From Patescibacteria group bacterium (lineage in GTDB: Bacteria; Patescibacteriota; Microgenomatia; Levybacterales; UBA12049), in assembly GCA_038061125.1 (NCBI GenBank), contig JBBTZX010000034.1, positions 1 through 40,074 on the forward strand: a DNA stretch of 40,074 nucleotides, written 5' to 3'. A program made the translations under genes and the position numbers. A model generated the notes under the pieces. The model ran no database searches, was not told the origin of the DNA, and saw nothing but the letters and a program-made list of their open reading frames with translations. Positions within the stretch are counted from its first letter, which is position 1; the number at the start of each line of letters is the position of its first letter. Positions 2,387-24,713 of the stretch are shown piece by piece.

Positions 2387-4254
2387 AGATATTCCGGTAA
2401 ATTTCTATCTAAATTTACAGCATGCAAATTATTCGAAATTACTTCTTCCGGTAGCTCCAAAAGAAATCTGGATATTGTATTGGACGTTCGCTGTCCGAAG
2501 AAAATTCTTCGGGAGGCAAAAGTTAAAAAGAGTTTTTCTTTTGCTCTTGTCATTCCTACATAGCATAAACGTCTTTCTTCCTCCAATTCATTTTTGTCCA
2601 TAAGGCTTCTCTGGTGGGGGAATAATCCTTCTTCCATTCCAACCATAAAAACTATGGGAAACTCAAGTCCTTTAGCCGCATGAAGAGTCATTAAAGTTAT
2701 CGCATCTTTTCTATCGCTATCTTTGGCAGGTTTGTCCGGCATGTATTCTTGTTCAACTAAGGCAATATTTTCCAGAAATTCCGTAAGATTTGGAAAGGCA
2801 ACTGCAACCGAACGAAGTTCTTTAATATTTTCCAGCCTTTCTTTATCTTCCTCCTCGCTTTTATCATATAACGAAAGATAATCAGTTGCTTGTAAGATTT
2901 TATCCAATACCTCAAGAGTTGTAATATTTATTGGATCTTTTATTTTTTCTACCAACTCCAGAAATTTATTCATTCTTCCTTTCCCCAATTTGCCAATCCT
3001 TCTATACGAAACCATATCTTTTGGATTTTCCAAAAATCTAACAAACGCTAGGATATCTTTAATTTCCTTCCTTTCGTAAAACCTAGTACCGCCAACCAGA
3101 ACATAGGGTATGCCTTGATGTAATAATATTTCTTCAATGACTCTGGATTGTGCATTAGTTCTATAAAAAATTGCTACGTCGGTAAATTTCCAGTCAGAGG
3201 TTGGTCCGCCTTTGGCGGAAAAATTTGAGTTTCGAGATTTAAGATTAGCAATCTCTCTAACTATAAATTCTGTTTCATCTTGTTCGTTTCTTGCTTCGTA
3301 GATTATAATATTTTCTCCTTTTGGATTTTTGGTCCAAAGAGATAGGACAGGATGAGTAGTATTATGTGAGATAACCGAAGAAGCAGCATCCAAAATTTTC
3401 TGCGTAGAGCGATAATTCTGTGAAAGAGCAAATGTTTTTGCACCCTTAAAGTCCTCTTTGAATTTCGTAAGATTGGTAAAATCCGCACCCCGCCAACTGT
3501 AAATGCTTTGGGAAAAATCGCCAACAACGCAAATATTTTTCCATTTAAGAGAAAGGGTCTTGGTTAAATAGTATTGTGCATGATTGGTATCCTGATATTC
3601 ATCAACCATAATATATTGAAAGCGATTCTGATATTTCTTAAGGATTTCTTGTTCTTTGTTGAAAAGCTCTATGGTTTTTAGTAAAAGATCATCGAAATCC
3701 AAAGCGTTGTTTTCCGAGAGCTGTTCTTGATATTTAATGTAAATTCTGGCTGCTTGTTCCTGAAAATGTCCTCTTGCATATCTAGGATATTCAAGCGAGG
3801 TTATCAGCTCATTTTTGGCCTGGGAAATTGCGCCTAATATAGAAGAAGGTTTATAATCTTTGGTTGGAATATTTAGTTTTAGCATAGCTTCTTTTATTGC
3901 ATCCAGCTGATCGGTAGTATCGTATATGGCAAATTTTTCCGAAAGGCCGATGTGTTTTCCTTCTATTCTAAGAATTCTGGCACATAAAGAATGAAACGTT
4001 GCGATTAATGGTTTTCCTTTTGTGATAAACTTTCCAATTCTTTCTTTCATTTCATTTGCCGCTTTATTGGTAAACGTTACCATTAATATATTGGACGGAT
4101 CGATACCTTTCTCCTGTATTAAATACACAACTTTATAAGTTAAAACCCTGGTTTTGCCGCTGCCTGCACCCGCAAGTATGACCATCGGACCGTCTGTATT
4201 TATTACTGCTTGTTTTTGTTCCAAATTTAAGTCCTTGAGAAAGGCATCAATCAT
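2383..4254 (-). CDS. pcrA: ATP-dependent DNA helicase PcrA/UvrD (SF1)
   Basis: 623 aa. Walker A AGAGSGKTRVLT, DEYQDT motif II, TLHAAKGLEF and CYVGMTRAKEKL helicase motifs. Confidence 0.9.
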   Translation of the reverse strand: MIDAFLKDLNLEQKQAVINTDGPMVILAGAGSGKTRVLTYKVVYLIQEKGIDPSNILMVTFTNKAANEMKERIGKFITKGKPLIATFHSLCARILRIEGKHIGLSEKFAIYDTTDQLDAIKEAMLKLNIPTKDYKPSSILGAISQAKNELITSLEYPRYARGHFQEQAARIYIKYQEQLSENNALDFDDLLLKTIELFNKEQEILKKYQNRFQYIMVDEYQDTNHAQYYLTKTLSLKWKNICVVGDFSQSIYSWRGADFTNLTKFKEDFKGAKTFALSQNYRSTQKILDAASSVISHNTTHPVLSLWTKNPKGENIIIYEARNEQDETEFIVREIANLKSRNSNFSAKGGPTSDWKFTDVAIFYRTNAQSRVIEEILLHQGIPYVLVGGTRFYERKEIKDILAFVRFLENPKDMVSYRRIGKLGKGRMNKFLELVEKIKDPINITTLEVLDKILQATDYLSLYDKSEEEDKERLENIKELRSVAVAFPNLTEFLENIALVEQEYMPDKPAKDSDRKDAITLMTLHAAKGLEFPIVFMVGMEEGLFPHQRSLMDKNELEEERRLCYVGMTRAKEKLFLTFASRRIFFGQRTSNTISRFLLELPEEVISNNLHAVNLDRNLPEYL

Positions 4255-4260
4255 AAGTAT
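4225..4260 (+). repeat. Left copy of a perfect 36-bp direct repeat (ATTTAAGTCCTTGAGAAAGGCATCAATCATAAGTAT)
   Basis: Identical to 6808-6843. Covers pcrA codons 1-10 plus 6 nt upstream. Confidence 0.95.
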
Positions 4261-4324
4261 TATTATAAGTAAACTACTTTATTAAGTTGAAGGTGTCTTG
4301 TAATTGTAACAGTAGCTTAAGCTC

Positions 4325-4353
4325 TTGACAACCACCTTATAGTGTGATAATAT
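4325..4353 (+). promoter_or_regulatory. Sigma70-like promoter of the DGR target gene
   Basis: TTGACA (4325-4330), 17-nt spacer, TAATAT (4348-4353) preceded by TG at 4345-4346 (extended -10). The in-frame ATG at 4362 follows 8 nt later, so the mRNA is possibly leaderless. Confidence 0.5.
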
Positions 4354-4361
4354 ACGTCATC

Positions 4362-4973
4362 ATGGTGCAGGCTTTAGAAAATTTATCCATACATTATAGA
4401 ATAAAAGGAGATGCTACGAGGGCAGCTCTATATTCAAAGCTAACGGCAGAAGAGCAAGCTAGAGGAACACCTAGAATCCTTTCAGAAGTTCCAGTATTTC
4501 TTCTAGGTATACCGGCTGATGAGGGTCTGACTAACAAGGAAATGGAAGCATTGCTAGATTCTGCAAGAGAAAAAGGTCTTAAGGTCAGCGATTGGGCAAG
4601 AAGAATAATTGGAAGAGCTGATGTTTCCAAAGACCCTCAAGCATCAGAATTGATGGCATTGGATAATCTTACTATGGGACTTCCTGAATACCCAACAACA
4701 ACGCAAGTATGGGAAAAATCGGCTGAATTTGGAAACAAAATTTCCGCGGAACGATTCGTCCGCTTTGCAATAGAGGCTGCGGAAGGAAAGATCCCTGTAG
4801 AAATAGGAAAACCGTTTGTTGCGATTATGGAGCCAGTGGCTGGCACGAGTGGCGGTCCGGGAGTTCTCTGTCTTGGACGCTCCGGGGGTGGATTGTGGTT
4901 GGATGGCCGTTATGCTGATTCTGACGATCAGTGGGGTCCGGTGTTTCGGTTTGTTGTTTCTTCTCGCAAGTAA
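4362..4973 (+). CDS. DGR target (variable) protein with C-terminal variable region
   Basis: The ORF track starts at GTG 4344. I prefer the in-frame ATG 4362 because of the promoter position. The last ~45 codons are the VR. The gene is visibly more GC-rich than its neighbours. No signal peptide or TM helix is visible. Confidence 0.8.
   Translation: MVQALENLSIHYRIKGDATRAALYSKLTAEEQARGTPRILSEVPVFLLGIPADEGLTNKEMEALLDSAREKGLKVSDWARRIIGRADVSKDPQASELMALDNLTMGLPEYPTTTQVWEKSAEFGNKISAERFVRFAIEAAEGKIPVEIGKPFVAIMEPVAGTSGGPGVLCLGRSGGGLWLDGRYADSDDQWGPVFRFVVSSRK
4836..4972 (+). repeat. DGR variable repeat (VR)
   Basis: Gap-free alignment to 5299-5435 (offset 463). All mismatches fall where the TR copy has A. 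Confidence 0.9.
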
Positions 4974-5298
4974 TTAGTTCTTAAATCTTTTGACACTTCG
5001 TTTTTTTTGTTCCTTAGTCTCTTTGATTCTGTTATACTTTGAAATTTCCGTCAAAATTTTTTTGATATACTTTTAATAGAAAGATATTGCTGAACGGCTA
5101 AGGCTTTTCAATATCTCTCCGGCAAATACATATCGGGAATACAAATGGTTAAGGCTTTCTGTAGAGGATTTGTATTTTGTCAAATTAAAAAAGAAAAACT
5201 TGGTGTAATGCGCTGGCTGATTTAAATATCACAAGTAAAATACAGCTTAATCTCTTGTTATTACTAGATAAGCAGTGAATTAGATGGCGTGTTATACG

Positions 5299-5435
5299 AA
5301 AACTGACACGAATGGCAATCCGAAAGTTCTCTATCTTGAACGCAACAAGGATGGATTGTGGTTGAATAGCAATTATGCTAATTCTGACAATCAGTGGAAT
5401 CCGGAAATTCGGTTTGTTGTTTCTTCTCGAAAGAA
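5299..5435 (+). ncRNA. DGR template repeat (TR)
   Basis: The adenine-rich copy of the VR. It has six AAY codons in the target frame at diversified sites. The 5' edge is ambiguous (5299-5303). The A-free 3' block CGGTTTGTTGTTTCTTCTCG is identical in both copies. Confidence 0.9.
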
Positions 5436-5442
5436 GTTCTTT

Positions 5443-5468
5443 CCGCAACTTAACCGTTGCGGTTTTTT
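5443..5468 (+). terminator. Hairpin plus T6 immediately 3' of TR (intrinsic terminator and/or DGR RNA structural element)
   Basis: CCGCAAC (5443-5449) pairs with GTTGCGG (5456-5462), 6-nt loop, then TTTTTT (5463-5468). The avd stop codon lies in the loop on the opposite strand. Confidence 0.6.
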
Positions 5469-5797
5469 ATTGATTCTATCTCTAAACTTTTTCTCCAGCC
5501 GCCAAACATTTTGCCGGTTTCATCAAGCTTTATTGCTATCTCTTCGTATTGCTTATGGGAGATAAGTTTGGCTTCCCAGGTTAAAGAAATCAAGAACTTA
5601 AGAATATCCAGATTAAAGATGCAGTTAGAAATTTTCTCAAGTTTTTTATCCTTACTGCTAAAATAGGCAGTGTAGGTAATTTCCAAAAGATCGAGAAATT
5701 TATTTTCAATTCTGACGCCAAGTGTATAGCGGCTGGTTTTTGGAATATGCGGAACAATAGTAATCCAAATCAAATATCCCTGTTTAATTCTGCTCAA
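5450..5797 (-). CDS. avd: Avd-like four-helix-bundle protein (DGR accessory variability determinant; 23S rRNA IVS protein family)
   Basis: 115 aa, TTG start. PKTSRYTLGVRIE and the C-terminal LDETGKMFGGWRKS match the family pattern (xGKMLxGW). Located between TR and RT but on the opposite strand. Confidence 0.75.
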   Translation of the reverse strand: MSRIKQGYLIWITIVPHIPKTSRYTLGVRIENKFLDLLEITYTAYFSSKDKKLEKISNCIFNLDILKFLISLTWEAKLISHKQYEEIAIKLDETGKMFGGWRKSLEIESIKNRNG

Positions 5798-5812
5798 AAT
5801 AGAACTGCTTTC

Positions 5813-5828
5813 AGAGAGAGAGAGAGAG
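5813..5828. repeat. (AG)8 dinucleotide microsatellite in the divergent avd/RT control region
   Basis: Read directly: agagagagagagagag. Confidence 0.95.
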
Positions 5829-5868
5829 TAAAAGACCGTTTCATATTAAATATAATGATATCATTTCT

Positions 5869-6813
5869 TTGGAAAATTTACTTATTTCATGGCAGGAATT
5901 TTTGAGAGGCAAAAGAGAAAGAAAAGATGTTGCCGAATTTTCACTGCGTTTAATGGACAATATCTTTTTTCTTCGCTTTGAACTATTAAATAAAACATAT
6001 AAACATGGGTTTTATCAGGCTTTTAAAATTAATGATCCGAAACCTCGAGACATCCATAAAGCAAATGTAAGAGATAGATTTCTTCATCACGCAATTTGCA
6101 GAGTTTTATATCCGTATTTTGATAAGAAATTTATCTTTGATTCATATTCCTGCAGATTAGAAAAAGGAACCCATCGAGCAATAAATCGTTTTAGAGATTT
6201 TGCCAGAAAAGCTTCCTGCAATAATGCTCGGACAGCGCGGGTATTGAAATGCGATATTAAAAAATTCTTTGCCAATATTAACCACCGGATTTTACTCAAT
6301 ATTTTAGAGAAAGATATAGAGGATGCTGACGTAATGTGGCTTTTAAAGGAAATTATCGAAAGCTTTTGTACTAAAGGTAAAAAGAGAGTTGGTCTTCCGC
6401 TTGGCAATTTAACCAGTCAATTATTTATTAATATCTATATGAATGAATTTGACCAATTCGTAAAGCGAACACTGAAAGTTAAGTATTATATCCGCTATGC
6501 TGATGATTTTGTGATTTTCCATGAAAGCAAAACATATTTAGAAAAACTTATTCCCAAAATATCGCAATATCTGGAAAAGGAACTAAAACTTTCTCTTCAT
6601 CCCAAAAAAGTCTTTATTAAAACACCTTCTTCAGGTATAGAATTTTTAGGCTGGGTCCATTTTCCTCAGCATCGAATATTAAGAACCGCAACGAAGCGAA
6701 GAATGTTTAGAAATTTAAAGCAAAATAATTCAAAAGAAATACTTGTTTCATATTTAGGTCTACTAAAACACGGAAATACTTATAAATTAGTAAAGAAAAT
6801 ATTAAGGATTTAA
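5869..6813 (+). CDS. DGR-type reverse transcriptase
   Basis: 314 aa, TTG start. KPRDIHKANVRDRFLHHA (RT motifs 1/2), LKCDIKKFF (motif A), LPLGNLTSQLFINIYM ([ILV]GxxxSQ DGR signature), IRYADDFVIF (YxDD). The stop codon lies inside the right 36-bp repeat. Confidence 0.9.
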   Translation: MENLLISWQEFLRGKRERKDVAEFSLRLMDNIFFLRFELLNKTYKHGFYQAFKINDPKPRDIHKANVRDRFLHHAICRVLYPYFDKKFIFDSYSCRLEKGTHRAINRFRDFARKASCNNARTARVLKCDIKKFFANINHRILLNILEKDIEDADVMWLLKEIIESFCTKGKKRVGLPLGNLTSQLFINIYMNEFDQFVKRTLKVKYYIRYADDFVIFHESKTYLEKLIPKISQYLEKELKLSLHPKKVFIKTPSSGIEFLGWVHFPQHRILRTATKRRMFRNLKQNNSKEILVSYLGLLKHGNTYKLVKKILRI

Positions 6814-6843
6814 GTCCTTGAGAAAGGCATCAATCATAAGTAT
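6808..6843 (+). repeat. Right copy of the perfect 36-bp direct repeat
   Basis: Identical to 4225-4260. Carries a decoy pcrA start on the minus strand (MIDAFLKDLN then a stop). Confidence 0.95.
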
Positions 6844-23207: not shown

Positions 23208-24713
23208 TCAGTCAAATATAGATAAGTTATCTTCGTTAATTTTTACCCTGTCTGCTTTCTTTCTGTAATCTAACTGGAGGGGGATTGAAGGTTTTTTCGC
23301 ATTTTCCAGAATATCTTTAATTGTTAATATTTGAATTTTGGGAATGCCTGTTTTATAAAATCCAGATTGTATTGCTTCTTCGGTCATGTTTCTTGTAGGT
23401 TCTTCTAGGGTAAGGAAAATTCCTACTAGAGCCTTCTCTTTTTCTACAACAGCTTTTAATTCCCTAATATCTTTTGCTTGAACCTTTCCGCTTTTTACTT
23501 GCACTATGGCTTTTTGATATTCTTTGGGTTTATCTGAATCCATAAAATAAATATATCCATCTATTCCGGTATCTGCTCCTTTTTTCTTGTCTGCCCAAGG
23601 TCTGGCGTTTACTAGGGATAAAGCCCAATACTGAAAATCATATCTATCTTGTCTTTGAGCAAGTTCTATTGCTCCTTGTAAGTCTTCGGGTTCTCCGATA
23701 ACATCGTAATTTTTTCTTTGTTCAAGTCCATATTCATTTTTTAATCGGTACTTCATTAAGTTAATTGCTAAATGAGTAATATCTATGCCAAGCCATGTAA
23801 GATGATAGTCTTCTTTCTGTTTTAAATATTCACAAGCGGATAGGGTAGTGCCGCATCCACAAAAAGGATCTAAAACAATTCCGTTTTTTGGACAGGATGC
23901 TTTTATTATTCTTTCAAGTAATTTACGAGGTTTTTGCGTGTTATATCCAAGTCTCTCGGTTTTGTCTCTTTCTGGGATTTGGGGTACTATCCAAACATCA
24001 TTTGGATTTCTTGGTTCGTCTAGGTAATATTTATAAACTTTTCCTGCTTTCCTTACTTCCCTATACCTTCTTCCGTCTGGATCGGTTCCAAAATATCCGC
24101 CAAAAGTGCCTTCGTTTTGTTCTCTTAAATCTCCAACAGCTTTCCCGTCATAAAAATAGCTTTCGGTCTTGTTATAAACAAGAAGAATATCGTGTCTTTT
24201 GCTAAAAGCAGTTCTGCCTATACTTCCGCTATTCCTAACCCAGACAATCTCATTCATAAAGTTTTTTACTCCAAAAATTGTATCCATAACTACTTTTAAG
24301 TAATGAGAAGCTGTCGGATCGCAGTGAAGATATAGAGTGCCCGTAGATTTCAAAACTCTATGCAACTCTAGTAATCTAATTGTCATCATGGTTAAGTAAG
24401 CCATTACATCGTTTTGCTTAATAAACTTTCTAAAAGCTAAAATCATGTCTACAGCCTCCGAAGGAGCATTGTCAACAATTTCTTTGAATGCTCGTTCCGA
24501 TTCTTCTGTCCAATGCCAAGTGTCATCAAATGCTTCAATTTGGGCTTTTGATTTGTCTCCAGTTAGTTCTTCGAATAGGACATTATAAGAAGCTTTAGAA
24601 TTGAAAGGCGGATCTAAGTAAATTAAGTCAATAGAATTATCAGCGATATGGTTTTTAAGTATCCGAAGGTTATCTCCAAAAAATAGGGTAGACCTGTTAA
24701 TGCCCATACTCAT
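23208..24713 (-). CDS. Beta-class N6-adenine/N4-cytosine DNA methyltransferase fused to a C-terminal Mrr-like (PD-(D/E)xK) nuclease domain
   Basis: 501 aa. DPPF (motif IV) precedes DPFCGCGTT (motif I), which is the beta permutation. The C-terminal ~140 aa carry GADTGIDGYIYF ... VQVKSGK, matching the Mrr_cat pattern (GDGGIDG ... QCK). Confidence 0.8.
   Translation of the reverse strand: MSMGINRSTLFFGDNLRILKNHIADNSIDLIYLDPPFNSKASYNVLFEELTGDKSKAQIEAFDDTWHWTEESERAFKEIVDNAPSEAVDMILAFRKFIKQNDVMAYLTMMTIRLLELHRVLKSTGTLYLHCDPTASHYLKVVMDTIFGVKNFMNEIVWVRNSGSIGRTAFSKRHDILLVYNKTESYFYDGKAVGDLREQNEGTFGGYFGTDPDGRRYREVRKAGKVYKYYLDEPRNPNDVWIVPQIPERDKTERLGYNTQKPRKLLERIIKASCPKNGIVLDPFCGCGTTLSACEYLKQKEDYHLTWLGIDITHLAINLMKYRLKNEYGLEQRKNYDVIGEPEDLQGAIELAQRQDRYDFQYWALSLVNARPWADKKKGADTGIDGYIYFMDSDKPKEYQKAIVQVKSGKVQAKDIRELKAVVEKEKALVGIFLTLEEPTRNMTEEAIQSGFYKTGIPKIQILTIKDILENAKKPSIPLQLDYRKKADRVKINEDNLSIFD

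Follow-up and report, generated by a model that had tools for sequence, protein, structure and literature searches.

A Patescibacteria diversity-generating retroelement with a covarying RNA domain 5' of its template repeat, a dinucleotide tract upstream of avd and a 36-bp flanking repeat

We analysed a 40,074-nt stretch of DNA (the window; contig JBBTZX010000034.1, positions 1 to 40,074 of the forward strand, GenBank assembly GCA_038061125.1) from a Patescibacteria group bacterium, in which an earlier note, made from the letters alone, had recognised a diversity-generating retroelement (DGR) whose template repeat (TR) and variable repeat (VR) differ only at adenines. The claim that the element is complete was borne out: the locus holds a reverse transcriptase (RT), a bAvd accessory protein, an adenine-only TR/VR pair, and a VR at the 3' end of an intact 203-aa open reading frame (ORF). 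Positions 4261-6807 are very probably a complete chromosomal DGR of the Patescibacteria type (architecture B3, cellular clade 2); the steps by which it would work are proposed below. The DGR itself is typical and of low novelty, one further element among the many catalogued in candidate phyla radiation (CPR) genomes. A wider reading, in which mutagenesis by Patescibacteria DGRs is switched stochastically by (CT)n slippage (OFF here), the RNA carries its protein-binding scaffold 5' of the TR, and the whole is a mobile 2.5-kb cassette, is put forward tentatively, as possible rather than probable. In the papers on CPR DGRs that were searched we found no description of a 5' structured RNA, of a (CT)n tract in avd, or of a filled and empty site pair with a 36-bp duplication.

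The repeat pair, its target and its reverse transcriptase

The coding and repeat features of the element are the following.
4325-4353, plus strand: promoter-like TTGACA-17-TAATAT with a TG extension, for the target gene; the region is conserved in two related loci (L008, L014)
4362-4973, plus strand: DGR target gene, 203 aa; an intact ORF whose homologues share its variable domain
4836-4972, plus strand: VR, the last 45 target codons, with an unambiguous core at 4840-4970; from a repeat finder and ungapped alignment
4974-5010, plus strand: near-invariant non-coding stretch just 3' of the VR stop codon; from the alignment of relatives, columns 8-49
5299-5435, plus strand: TR, with its core at 5303-5433 and an A-free 3' block at 5408-5429; from alignment
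5450-5797, minus strand: avd, encoding a bAvd four-helix-bundle protein (PF22296), as an ORF from a TTG start at 5797
5869-6813, plus strand: DGR RT, 314 aa, its last codon and stop codon lying inside the right copy of a 36-nt direct repeat, R

The repeat finder and the alignment agreed on a gap-free match of the TR to the VR at an offset of 463 nt. Realignment of the TR core against the VR core reproduced the earlier count of 25 mismatches, which from TR to VR comprise 19 A>G, three A>T and three A>C changes. Tabulated by TR base, all 25 lie at adenines, of which the core has 38, with 13 kept, and none of the 93 C, G or T positions differs (P = 1.1e-17, hypergeometric, for 25 mismatches all within 38 A among 131 positions). 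Inclusion of the ambiguous edges (TR 5299-5435) raises the count to 30, again all at TR adenines, and the homology stops at 5436, where non-A mismatches start. In the frame of the VR, 23 of the 25 substituted adenines occupy codon position 1 or 2, and every core substitution is non-synonymous except CGA>CGC at 5430. The translations of the two repeats given in the earlier note were correct on re-translation; its statement that all six AAY codons are substituted was right as to the substitution and short in number, since the full TR has eight, all recoded in the VR, one of them to Arg.

The earlier note was also right that the A-free 3' block is the same in both repeats. It is 22 nt long, TTCGGTTTGTTGTTTCTTCTCG, lies at 4945-4966 in the VR and 5408-5429 in the TR, and occurs nowhere else in the window; beyond it the flanks of the two repeats diverge. 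The VR makes up codons 159-203 of the target gene, and the TR lies 326 nt downstream of the VR and ~430 nt upstream of the RT gene. No further VR copy was found in the window. The ~40 nt that follow the VR stop codon are almost unchanged among seven loci, though non-coding. The stretch at 4974-5010 may be a determinant of the homing site, similar to an initiation of mutagenic homing (IMH) region, or part of a terminator.

The RT translation contains LGNLTSQ, an instance of the [ILV]GxxxSQ signature, and YADD, as the earlier note had reported, and the protein matches RVT_1 (Pfam). Its best match in a PDB search was the Bordetella phage DGR RT (bRT; 8ub7; E 1.8e-39, 139 bits); group II intron and retron-type RTs reached E ~1e-21 and no more than 80 bits, in agreement with the earlier placement of the RT nearer to DGR than to retron or group II intron enzymes. 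The family is large, with at least 8000 proteins at E <1e-30. The top 120 homologues are 63-100% identical, all but two of them 66-76%, and the few among these that are named by source are all from CPR bacteria (Daviesbacteria, Giovannonibacteria, Paceibacter, Patescibacteria). The right end of the RT is a non-conserved C-terminal tail whose stop codon is supplied by repeat R. The ORF at 5450-5797, described earlier as an Avd ending in GKMFGGW, scored 61 bits against PF22296 (bAvd; cut-off 40), and the motif is present, although 15 residues before the C-terminus.

We also considered a reading in which this is not a DGR, the RT having come from a retron, a group II intron or a defence system, and the repeat pair being an ordinary diverged duplication. 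The RT shares its fold (RVT_1, E ~1e-21) with the group II intron and retron enzymes, its best NCBIfam match is a group II intron RT/maturase model (144 bits, below the cut-off of 300), and NCBI labels the protein 'reverse transcriptase/maturase family'; the NCBIfam match list, however, contains no DGR RT model. The window element further differs from introns and retrons in having the [ILV]GxxxSQ signature, an adjoining bAvd gene and a TR/VR pair, and in having no intron or msr/msd RNA by Rfam search. Together with the adenine-only mismatches (P ~1e-17) and with bRT as by far the best solved relative, these results refute the non-DGR reading for practical purposes.

The target matched no family in Pfam or NCBIfam and has no signal peptide. 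In each of its 13 close homologues the C-terminal ~45 residues are hypervariable, whereas the scaffold that bears them is conserved, and a profile search gave 854 remote relatives, many of which are larger proteins that end in the domain; a Pfam scan of ten large relatives covered the variable domain in none. The domain is common to other CPR DGR targets. For such targets Roux et al. (PMC8144416) expect a very divergent C-type lectin fold. A confident AlphaFold2 model (pLDDT, the predicted local distance difference test, 89.8; 101 sequences) gave nothing significant in Foldseek searches of the PDB and BFVD (best E 0.8), although several of the weak top PDB matches are C-type lectins, and the target profile returned no PDB sequence. 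The variable domain is one that is widespread in CPR bacteria without a detectable structural relative.

The order of the element is target(+), TR(+), avd(-), RT(+). Loci found through target homologues (L007-L011 and L014) have the same order, with a spacer of ~330 nt between target and TR; their TR/VR pairs are adenine-only in four, with one non-A mismatch each in L008 and L011. Loci found through RT homologues (L017-L020) also share the layout of the window, have adenine-biased TR/VR pairs, and encode targets of 235-662 aa that end in the same variable domain as the window target. Over all ten related loci, seven pairs are adenine-only and three have one non-A mismatch each. Wu et al. 2018 (PMC5758913) described B3, that is TR-(avd)-RT, as the architecture of 90% of CPR DGRs, and Roux et al. 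2021 (PMC8144416) described cellular clade 2 as restricted to Patescibacteria, with targets lacking recognisable domains. Given these descriptions, an inverted avd and an anonymous target are the expected state here. The source is an NCBI metagenome-assembled genome named 'Patescibacteria group bacterium' (proteins MEK7450543-45), with more copies in Hainich groundwater assemblies. The element thus shares with the published CPR DGRs its gene order, a Patescibacteria groundwater host, a chromosomal location, a small target with no recognisable domain or membrane anchor, and an RT 66-76% identical to many CPR RTs; nothing essential differs, and the window element is a member of the group.

Several results fit this reading less well. 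The Avd scored 71.6 bits against the NCBIfam equivalog NF033474, below the cut-off of 80. Repeat and hairpin scans revealed no G+C-rich inverted repeat or hairpin 3' of the VR of the kind known from the DGRs of Bordetella phage and Legionella. Such repeats were reported 3' of the VR in only 34% of DGRs (Wu et al., PMC5758913). The structural searches gave no tie of the target to C-type lectins, and the roles of the RNA elements described below are assigned from position and analogy only.

A covarying RNA domain 5' of the template repeat

The features of the TR RNA are the following.
5063-5071, plus strand: conserved extended -10 element TGATATACT, the putative promoter of the TR RNA; from conservation in relatives
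5083-5181, plus strand: RNA domain A, helices H1-H5, 5' of the TR; from covariation
5203-5297, plus strand: RNA domain B, a three-way junction of H6-H8; from covariation and a covariance model
5429-5443, plus strand: small conserved hairpin at the TR 3' end, GAAAG, a variable loop and CUUUC; from alignment and RNAalifold
5443-5470, plus strand: G+C-rich hairpin with a T-run, terminator-like, overlapping the avd stop codon; from a hairpin scan

The non-coding spacer between VR and TR has a mean column identity of 83% among relatives, compared with ~50% for the target proteins. RNAalifold analysis of an alignment of 11 loci (A4) revealed eight helices 5' of the TR, spanning ~215 nt (5083-5297) and comprising 60 pairs, with 95.7% of cells paired. 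Changes on both sides were seen in 30 of the 60 pairs, compared with 6-7 when the 3' partners were slid by 1-3 columns, and none of 500 shuffles reached the observed pairing values. Folding of the single sequence gave the same helices (z = -2.3). The same alignment contains a conserved TGNTATACT upstream of domain A. Helix H6, of 12 bp (5203-5214 with 5286-5297), stops 1-5 nt short of the TR.

A covariance model of domain B (R1) gave strong matches at loci with RTs 55-67% identical to that of the window (L023, L024, L025) and weak matches in L026 and L031 (RT 50% identical). It matched nothing beside RTs of <=35% identity, nor in the DGR-free relatives L021 and L022. Comparison of the VR-TR spacer with Rfam gave no match at gathering thresholds and nothing meaningful up to E 5, and an exact-pattern scan of viral contigs for the RNA motif gave no matches.

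On the 3' side of the TR, the small hairpin has the form GAAAG-loop-CUUUY in relatives. The terminator-like hairpin begins 8 nt past the TR, and its stem shows one compensatory pair change among relatives together with one-side changes. The segment 5443-5470 has the look of an intrinsic terminator for the TR RNA; by analogy it could also be an equivalent of the Avd-binding stem-loop.

In the Bordetella DGR RNA, the Avd-binding, priming, stop and RT-binding elements lie in a ~140-nt spacer 3' of the TR, and the comparative survey of Handa et al. reached no further than 40 nt upstream of the TR and 100 nt downstream (10.1101/2023.10.23.563531). Because the covarying domain is located 5' of the TR and no conserved RNA was detected downstream, we infer that in the Patescibacteria DGR clade the protein-binding scaffold of the RNA, with its RT/Avd-binding and stop elements, would lie 5' of the TR. 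Helix H6 would then be the positional counterpart of the 'cPRT Stop' duplex. A Bordetella-like spacer RNA hidden in the antisense of avd was also considered and rejected, as third-codon conservation in the avd 3' end is not raised. For DGR RNA outside Bordetella phage, the significance lies in a covariation-supported 5' domain in place of a 3' spacer.

In the model that we propose, the dedicated promoter at 5063-5071 would drive an RNA of ~390 nt, whose parts, delimited by covariation and sequence scans, are the ~215-nt 5' domain, the 137-nt TR, the small hairpin and the terminator. As in the Bordetella phage, the RT and Avd, the latter encoded on the opposite strand, would reverse-transcribe the TR with misincorporation opposite adenines, and the cDNA would replace the VR (4836-4972), recoding up to ~20 codons of the C-terminal domain of the target.

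The window element resembles that of Bordetella phage BPP-1 (mtd-avd-TR-brt) in its adenine-specific pattern from TR to VR, its RT family, its Avd partner, the VR at the target C-terminus, and a duplex abutting the 5' end of the TR at the 'cPRT Stop' position. It differs in several respects: avd is inverted and downstream of the TR, the structured RNA is 5' of the TR in place of the 3' spacer, the terminator lies within 35 nt of the TR, and no G+C-rich IMH or hairpin follows the VR. Moreover, the element is cellular and not phage-borne, and its target is not recognisably of the Mtd/C-type lectin kind.

The dinucleotide tract upstream of avd and the activity of the element

Two features precede the Avd body.
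5813-5828, no strand assigned: tract read as (AG)8 on the plus and (CT)8 on the minus strand; no other dinucleotide repeat in the 40-kb window reaches 5 units
5794-5844, minus strand: conserved upstream ATG (5844-5842) followed by the tract; out of frame, it reads MKRSFTLSLSLKAVLF and then a stop

All 11 close loci have a perfect tract, of 6-18 units, at this position, and such a repeat was found nowhere else in the 146 kb of sequence examined. Upstream of the tract, at a distance of 14-24 nt, each of 12 loci has an ATG; L025 has C8 in place of the tract. In four of the 11 loci (L007, L008, L009 and L017) this ATG is in frame with the Avd body, and the window and six others have it out of frame. 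Gene callers take this ATG as the start at in-frame loci (L008, 133 aa); several out-of-frame loci have no canonical alternative start, and the window has the TTG at 5797.

The anatomy of the tract suggests a slipped-strand contingency locus, so that Avd, and hence mutagenesis, would be phase-variable; in the model, Avd production would be gated by the (CT)n between the conserved ATG and the Avd body, with the window in the out-of-frame state. As in the contingency loci of Neisseria, Haemophilus and Campylobacter, a perfect short-unit repeat separates the protein body from a conserved start codon; its repeat number varies among relatives to give in-frame and out-of-frame states. The difference is that the gated gene would be an accessory factor of a mutagenic retroelement and not a surface or restriction-modification gene, and that these consensus assemblies show no length variation within a population. 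Our literature search turned up no paper connecting DGRs with repeat-mediated phase variation. As a hypothesis for DGR regulation, a hypermutable repeat conserved in avd is concrete and can be tested on reads; if true, it would make the element a phase-variable 'diversifier', with which a lineage could freeze a variant that is useful.

The alternative is that the tract is no translational switch but a transcriptional or structural element. It could, for example, serve the RT promoter as an upstream element, form a polypurine/polypyrimidine structure or belong to an untranslated leader; Avd would then start downstream of it. The evidence on this point is divided, and we regard the alternative as falling just short of probable. 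In-frame ATGs at four of 11 loci are at the chance level for an untranslated tract, the 1/3 expected without a frame constraint. The consensus tract length is also constant among near-identical assemblies of two strains (8 units in four assemblies of the window strain, 7 units in four of the L018 strain), the Pfam bAvd domain begins after the tract, the internal TTG start means that Avd may still be made, and L023 and L024, which have no tract, speak against a phase switch. An untranslated tract accounts less readily for the retention of the ATG at 14-24 nt in all 12 loci while the surrounding bases vary, for the several loci with no canonical in-frame start between tract and Avd domain, for the use of the upstream ATG by gene callers at L008, for the C8 homopolymer at the tract position in L025, and for a tract that is perfect across lineages ~30% diverged, the sole such repeat in 146 kb.

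The out-of-frame avd ATG bears equally on whether the element, as a DGR, is still at work, and it suggests that the element may be quiet at present. The VR is identical in three independent assemblies, the window, ERZ1292645 and ERR3858139 (consensus), the only differences in 6,980 nt falling outside it; with VR and tract the same in all available assemblies of the strain, there is no sign of current activity. The earlier note's suggestion of recent or ongoing homing gained no support from the analysis. A fossil or switched-off DGR, whose parts look intact and whose adenine-only pattern records past activity, would account for this identity, for the out-of-frame ATG with (CT)8 and for the replacement of the RT tail by duplicated host sequence. 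We consider this reading unlikely. With none of the 93 non-A positions mismatched, there has been little decay since the last homing, and because non-A TR/VR mismatches are absent the last homing was probably not ancient. The ORFs are all intact, as are the catalytic YADD, the putative TR promoter and the RNA helices; the RT is short of only 0-8 residues of a non-conserved tail, and the TTG start for Avd remains.

The cassette at the uvrD/tpiA junction

The element is bounded by the two copies of repeat R.
4225-4260, no strand assigned: left copy of the 36-bp target duplication R; from the repeat finder, with a single copy at the empty site of L021
4261-6807, plus strand: inserted DGR cassette, 2547 nt, absent at the orthologous junction of two relatives
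6808-6843, no strand assigned: right copy of R, containing the promoter-like TTGAGA-17-TATAAT of tpiA and a relic uvrD start; from the repeat finder and a promoter scan

The earlier note gave 4225 and 6843 as the limits of the element; these positions prove to be the outer ends of the two copies of a perfect direct repeat of 36 nt, which it did not mention. On the minus strand R contains the uvrD start codon (4254) and the first 10 codons; read on the plus strand, it takes in the whole -35 hexamer and half of the -10 hexamer belonging to a promoter-like site directed towards tpiA. Through the closest TIM homologues we found two DGR-free relatives of like synteny, L021 (TIM 86% identical) and L022 (Levybacteria, 76%). 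In L021 the gap between uvrD and tpiA is 36 nt and holds one copy of R (2094-2129), identical at 36 of 36 positions, followed by the same 30 nt as in the window between R and the tpiA ATG; the flanks of the L021 and window junctions are 85-89% identical. The L022 junction (5880-5920) is also empty. The filled site here, compared with the empty sites of L021 and L022 and the single R of L021, shows that 4261-6807 was inserted and that 36 bp of the target were duplicated. The whole cassette entered the divergent uvrD/tpiA junction with this duplication, which, as read from the sequence, keeps the uvrD start and the predicted tpiA promoter intact in a compact junction. The left R and the first 3 nt of the cassette also form a promoter-like TTGAGA-17-TATTAT (4235-4263) directed into the target gene.

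An assembly artefact would instead have joined an empty chromosomal site to a separate molecule, either circular or from another strain, sharing the 36 nt. In its favour, contigs from Logan (k=31) break exactly within R, the related DGR L025 assembles as a 2,672-bp circle, and a 103-nt flanking repeat at L018 did prove to be a scaffolding artefact. It is nevertheless very unlikely, as two independent assemblies are contiguous through both cassette junctions, running gap-free through uvrD-R-cassette-R-tpiA, and 36 nt is well under the read length and the larger k values of metagenome assemblers.

A Pfam scan of the cassette, which encodes only target, Avd and RT, revealed no recombinase, transposase or integrase, and the repeat finder detected no terminal inverted repeats. 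None of 14 other loci has flanking repeats. We rejected the idea of R as an attachment site borne by the cassette, since cassettes of the same target family stand in other contexts without R. For the spread of DGR cassettes, the significance is that filled and empty site differ exactly by the cassette and a 36-bp duplication, with no recombinase in the cassette.

The 103-nt flanking repeat of L018 (GCA_001780645.1; 1249-1381 and 5038-5140) was likewise set aside: its left copy abuts a scaffold gap of 29 N, and L078, a gap-free independent contig of the same strain, has no left copy. The repeat is most likely an empty-site haplotype that was scaffolded in, which hints at a presence/absence polymorphism of the L018 DGR. 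In the left copy, a PDDEXK gene is directly followed by the upstream region of an RRM gene.

In L008, from a more distant host, a related DGR occupies the same junction with a repeat-like sequence on the left only. There, uvrD has a different N-terminus, and a free-standing LAGLIDADG endonuclease gene (244-1140) separates it from a relic uvrD start (MNYDFLKDLN) that abuts the DGR. The DGRs of L008 and the window may descend from one old insertion with later precise losses, or from two independent insertions.

The L025 contig (IMGVR_UViG_3300031215_001417, 1-2797) overlaps exactly with itself at its ends over at least 119 nt and thus closes as a circle of 2,672 bp, holding only RT, promoter, target, RNA domain, TR and avd. 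The underlying DNA may be truly circular, or the overlap may come from a tandem copy or from a long flanking repeat.

Outside the cassette, the window has the housekeeping genes of an ordinary chromosome (UvrD, TIM, LytR, MurJ, LepA, GroEL and TatD), and no tRNA or Rfam family was found in the window. A 501-aa ORF at 23208-24713 on the minus strand encodes an N6/N4 DNA methylase domain fused to an Mrr-type restriction endonuclease domain.

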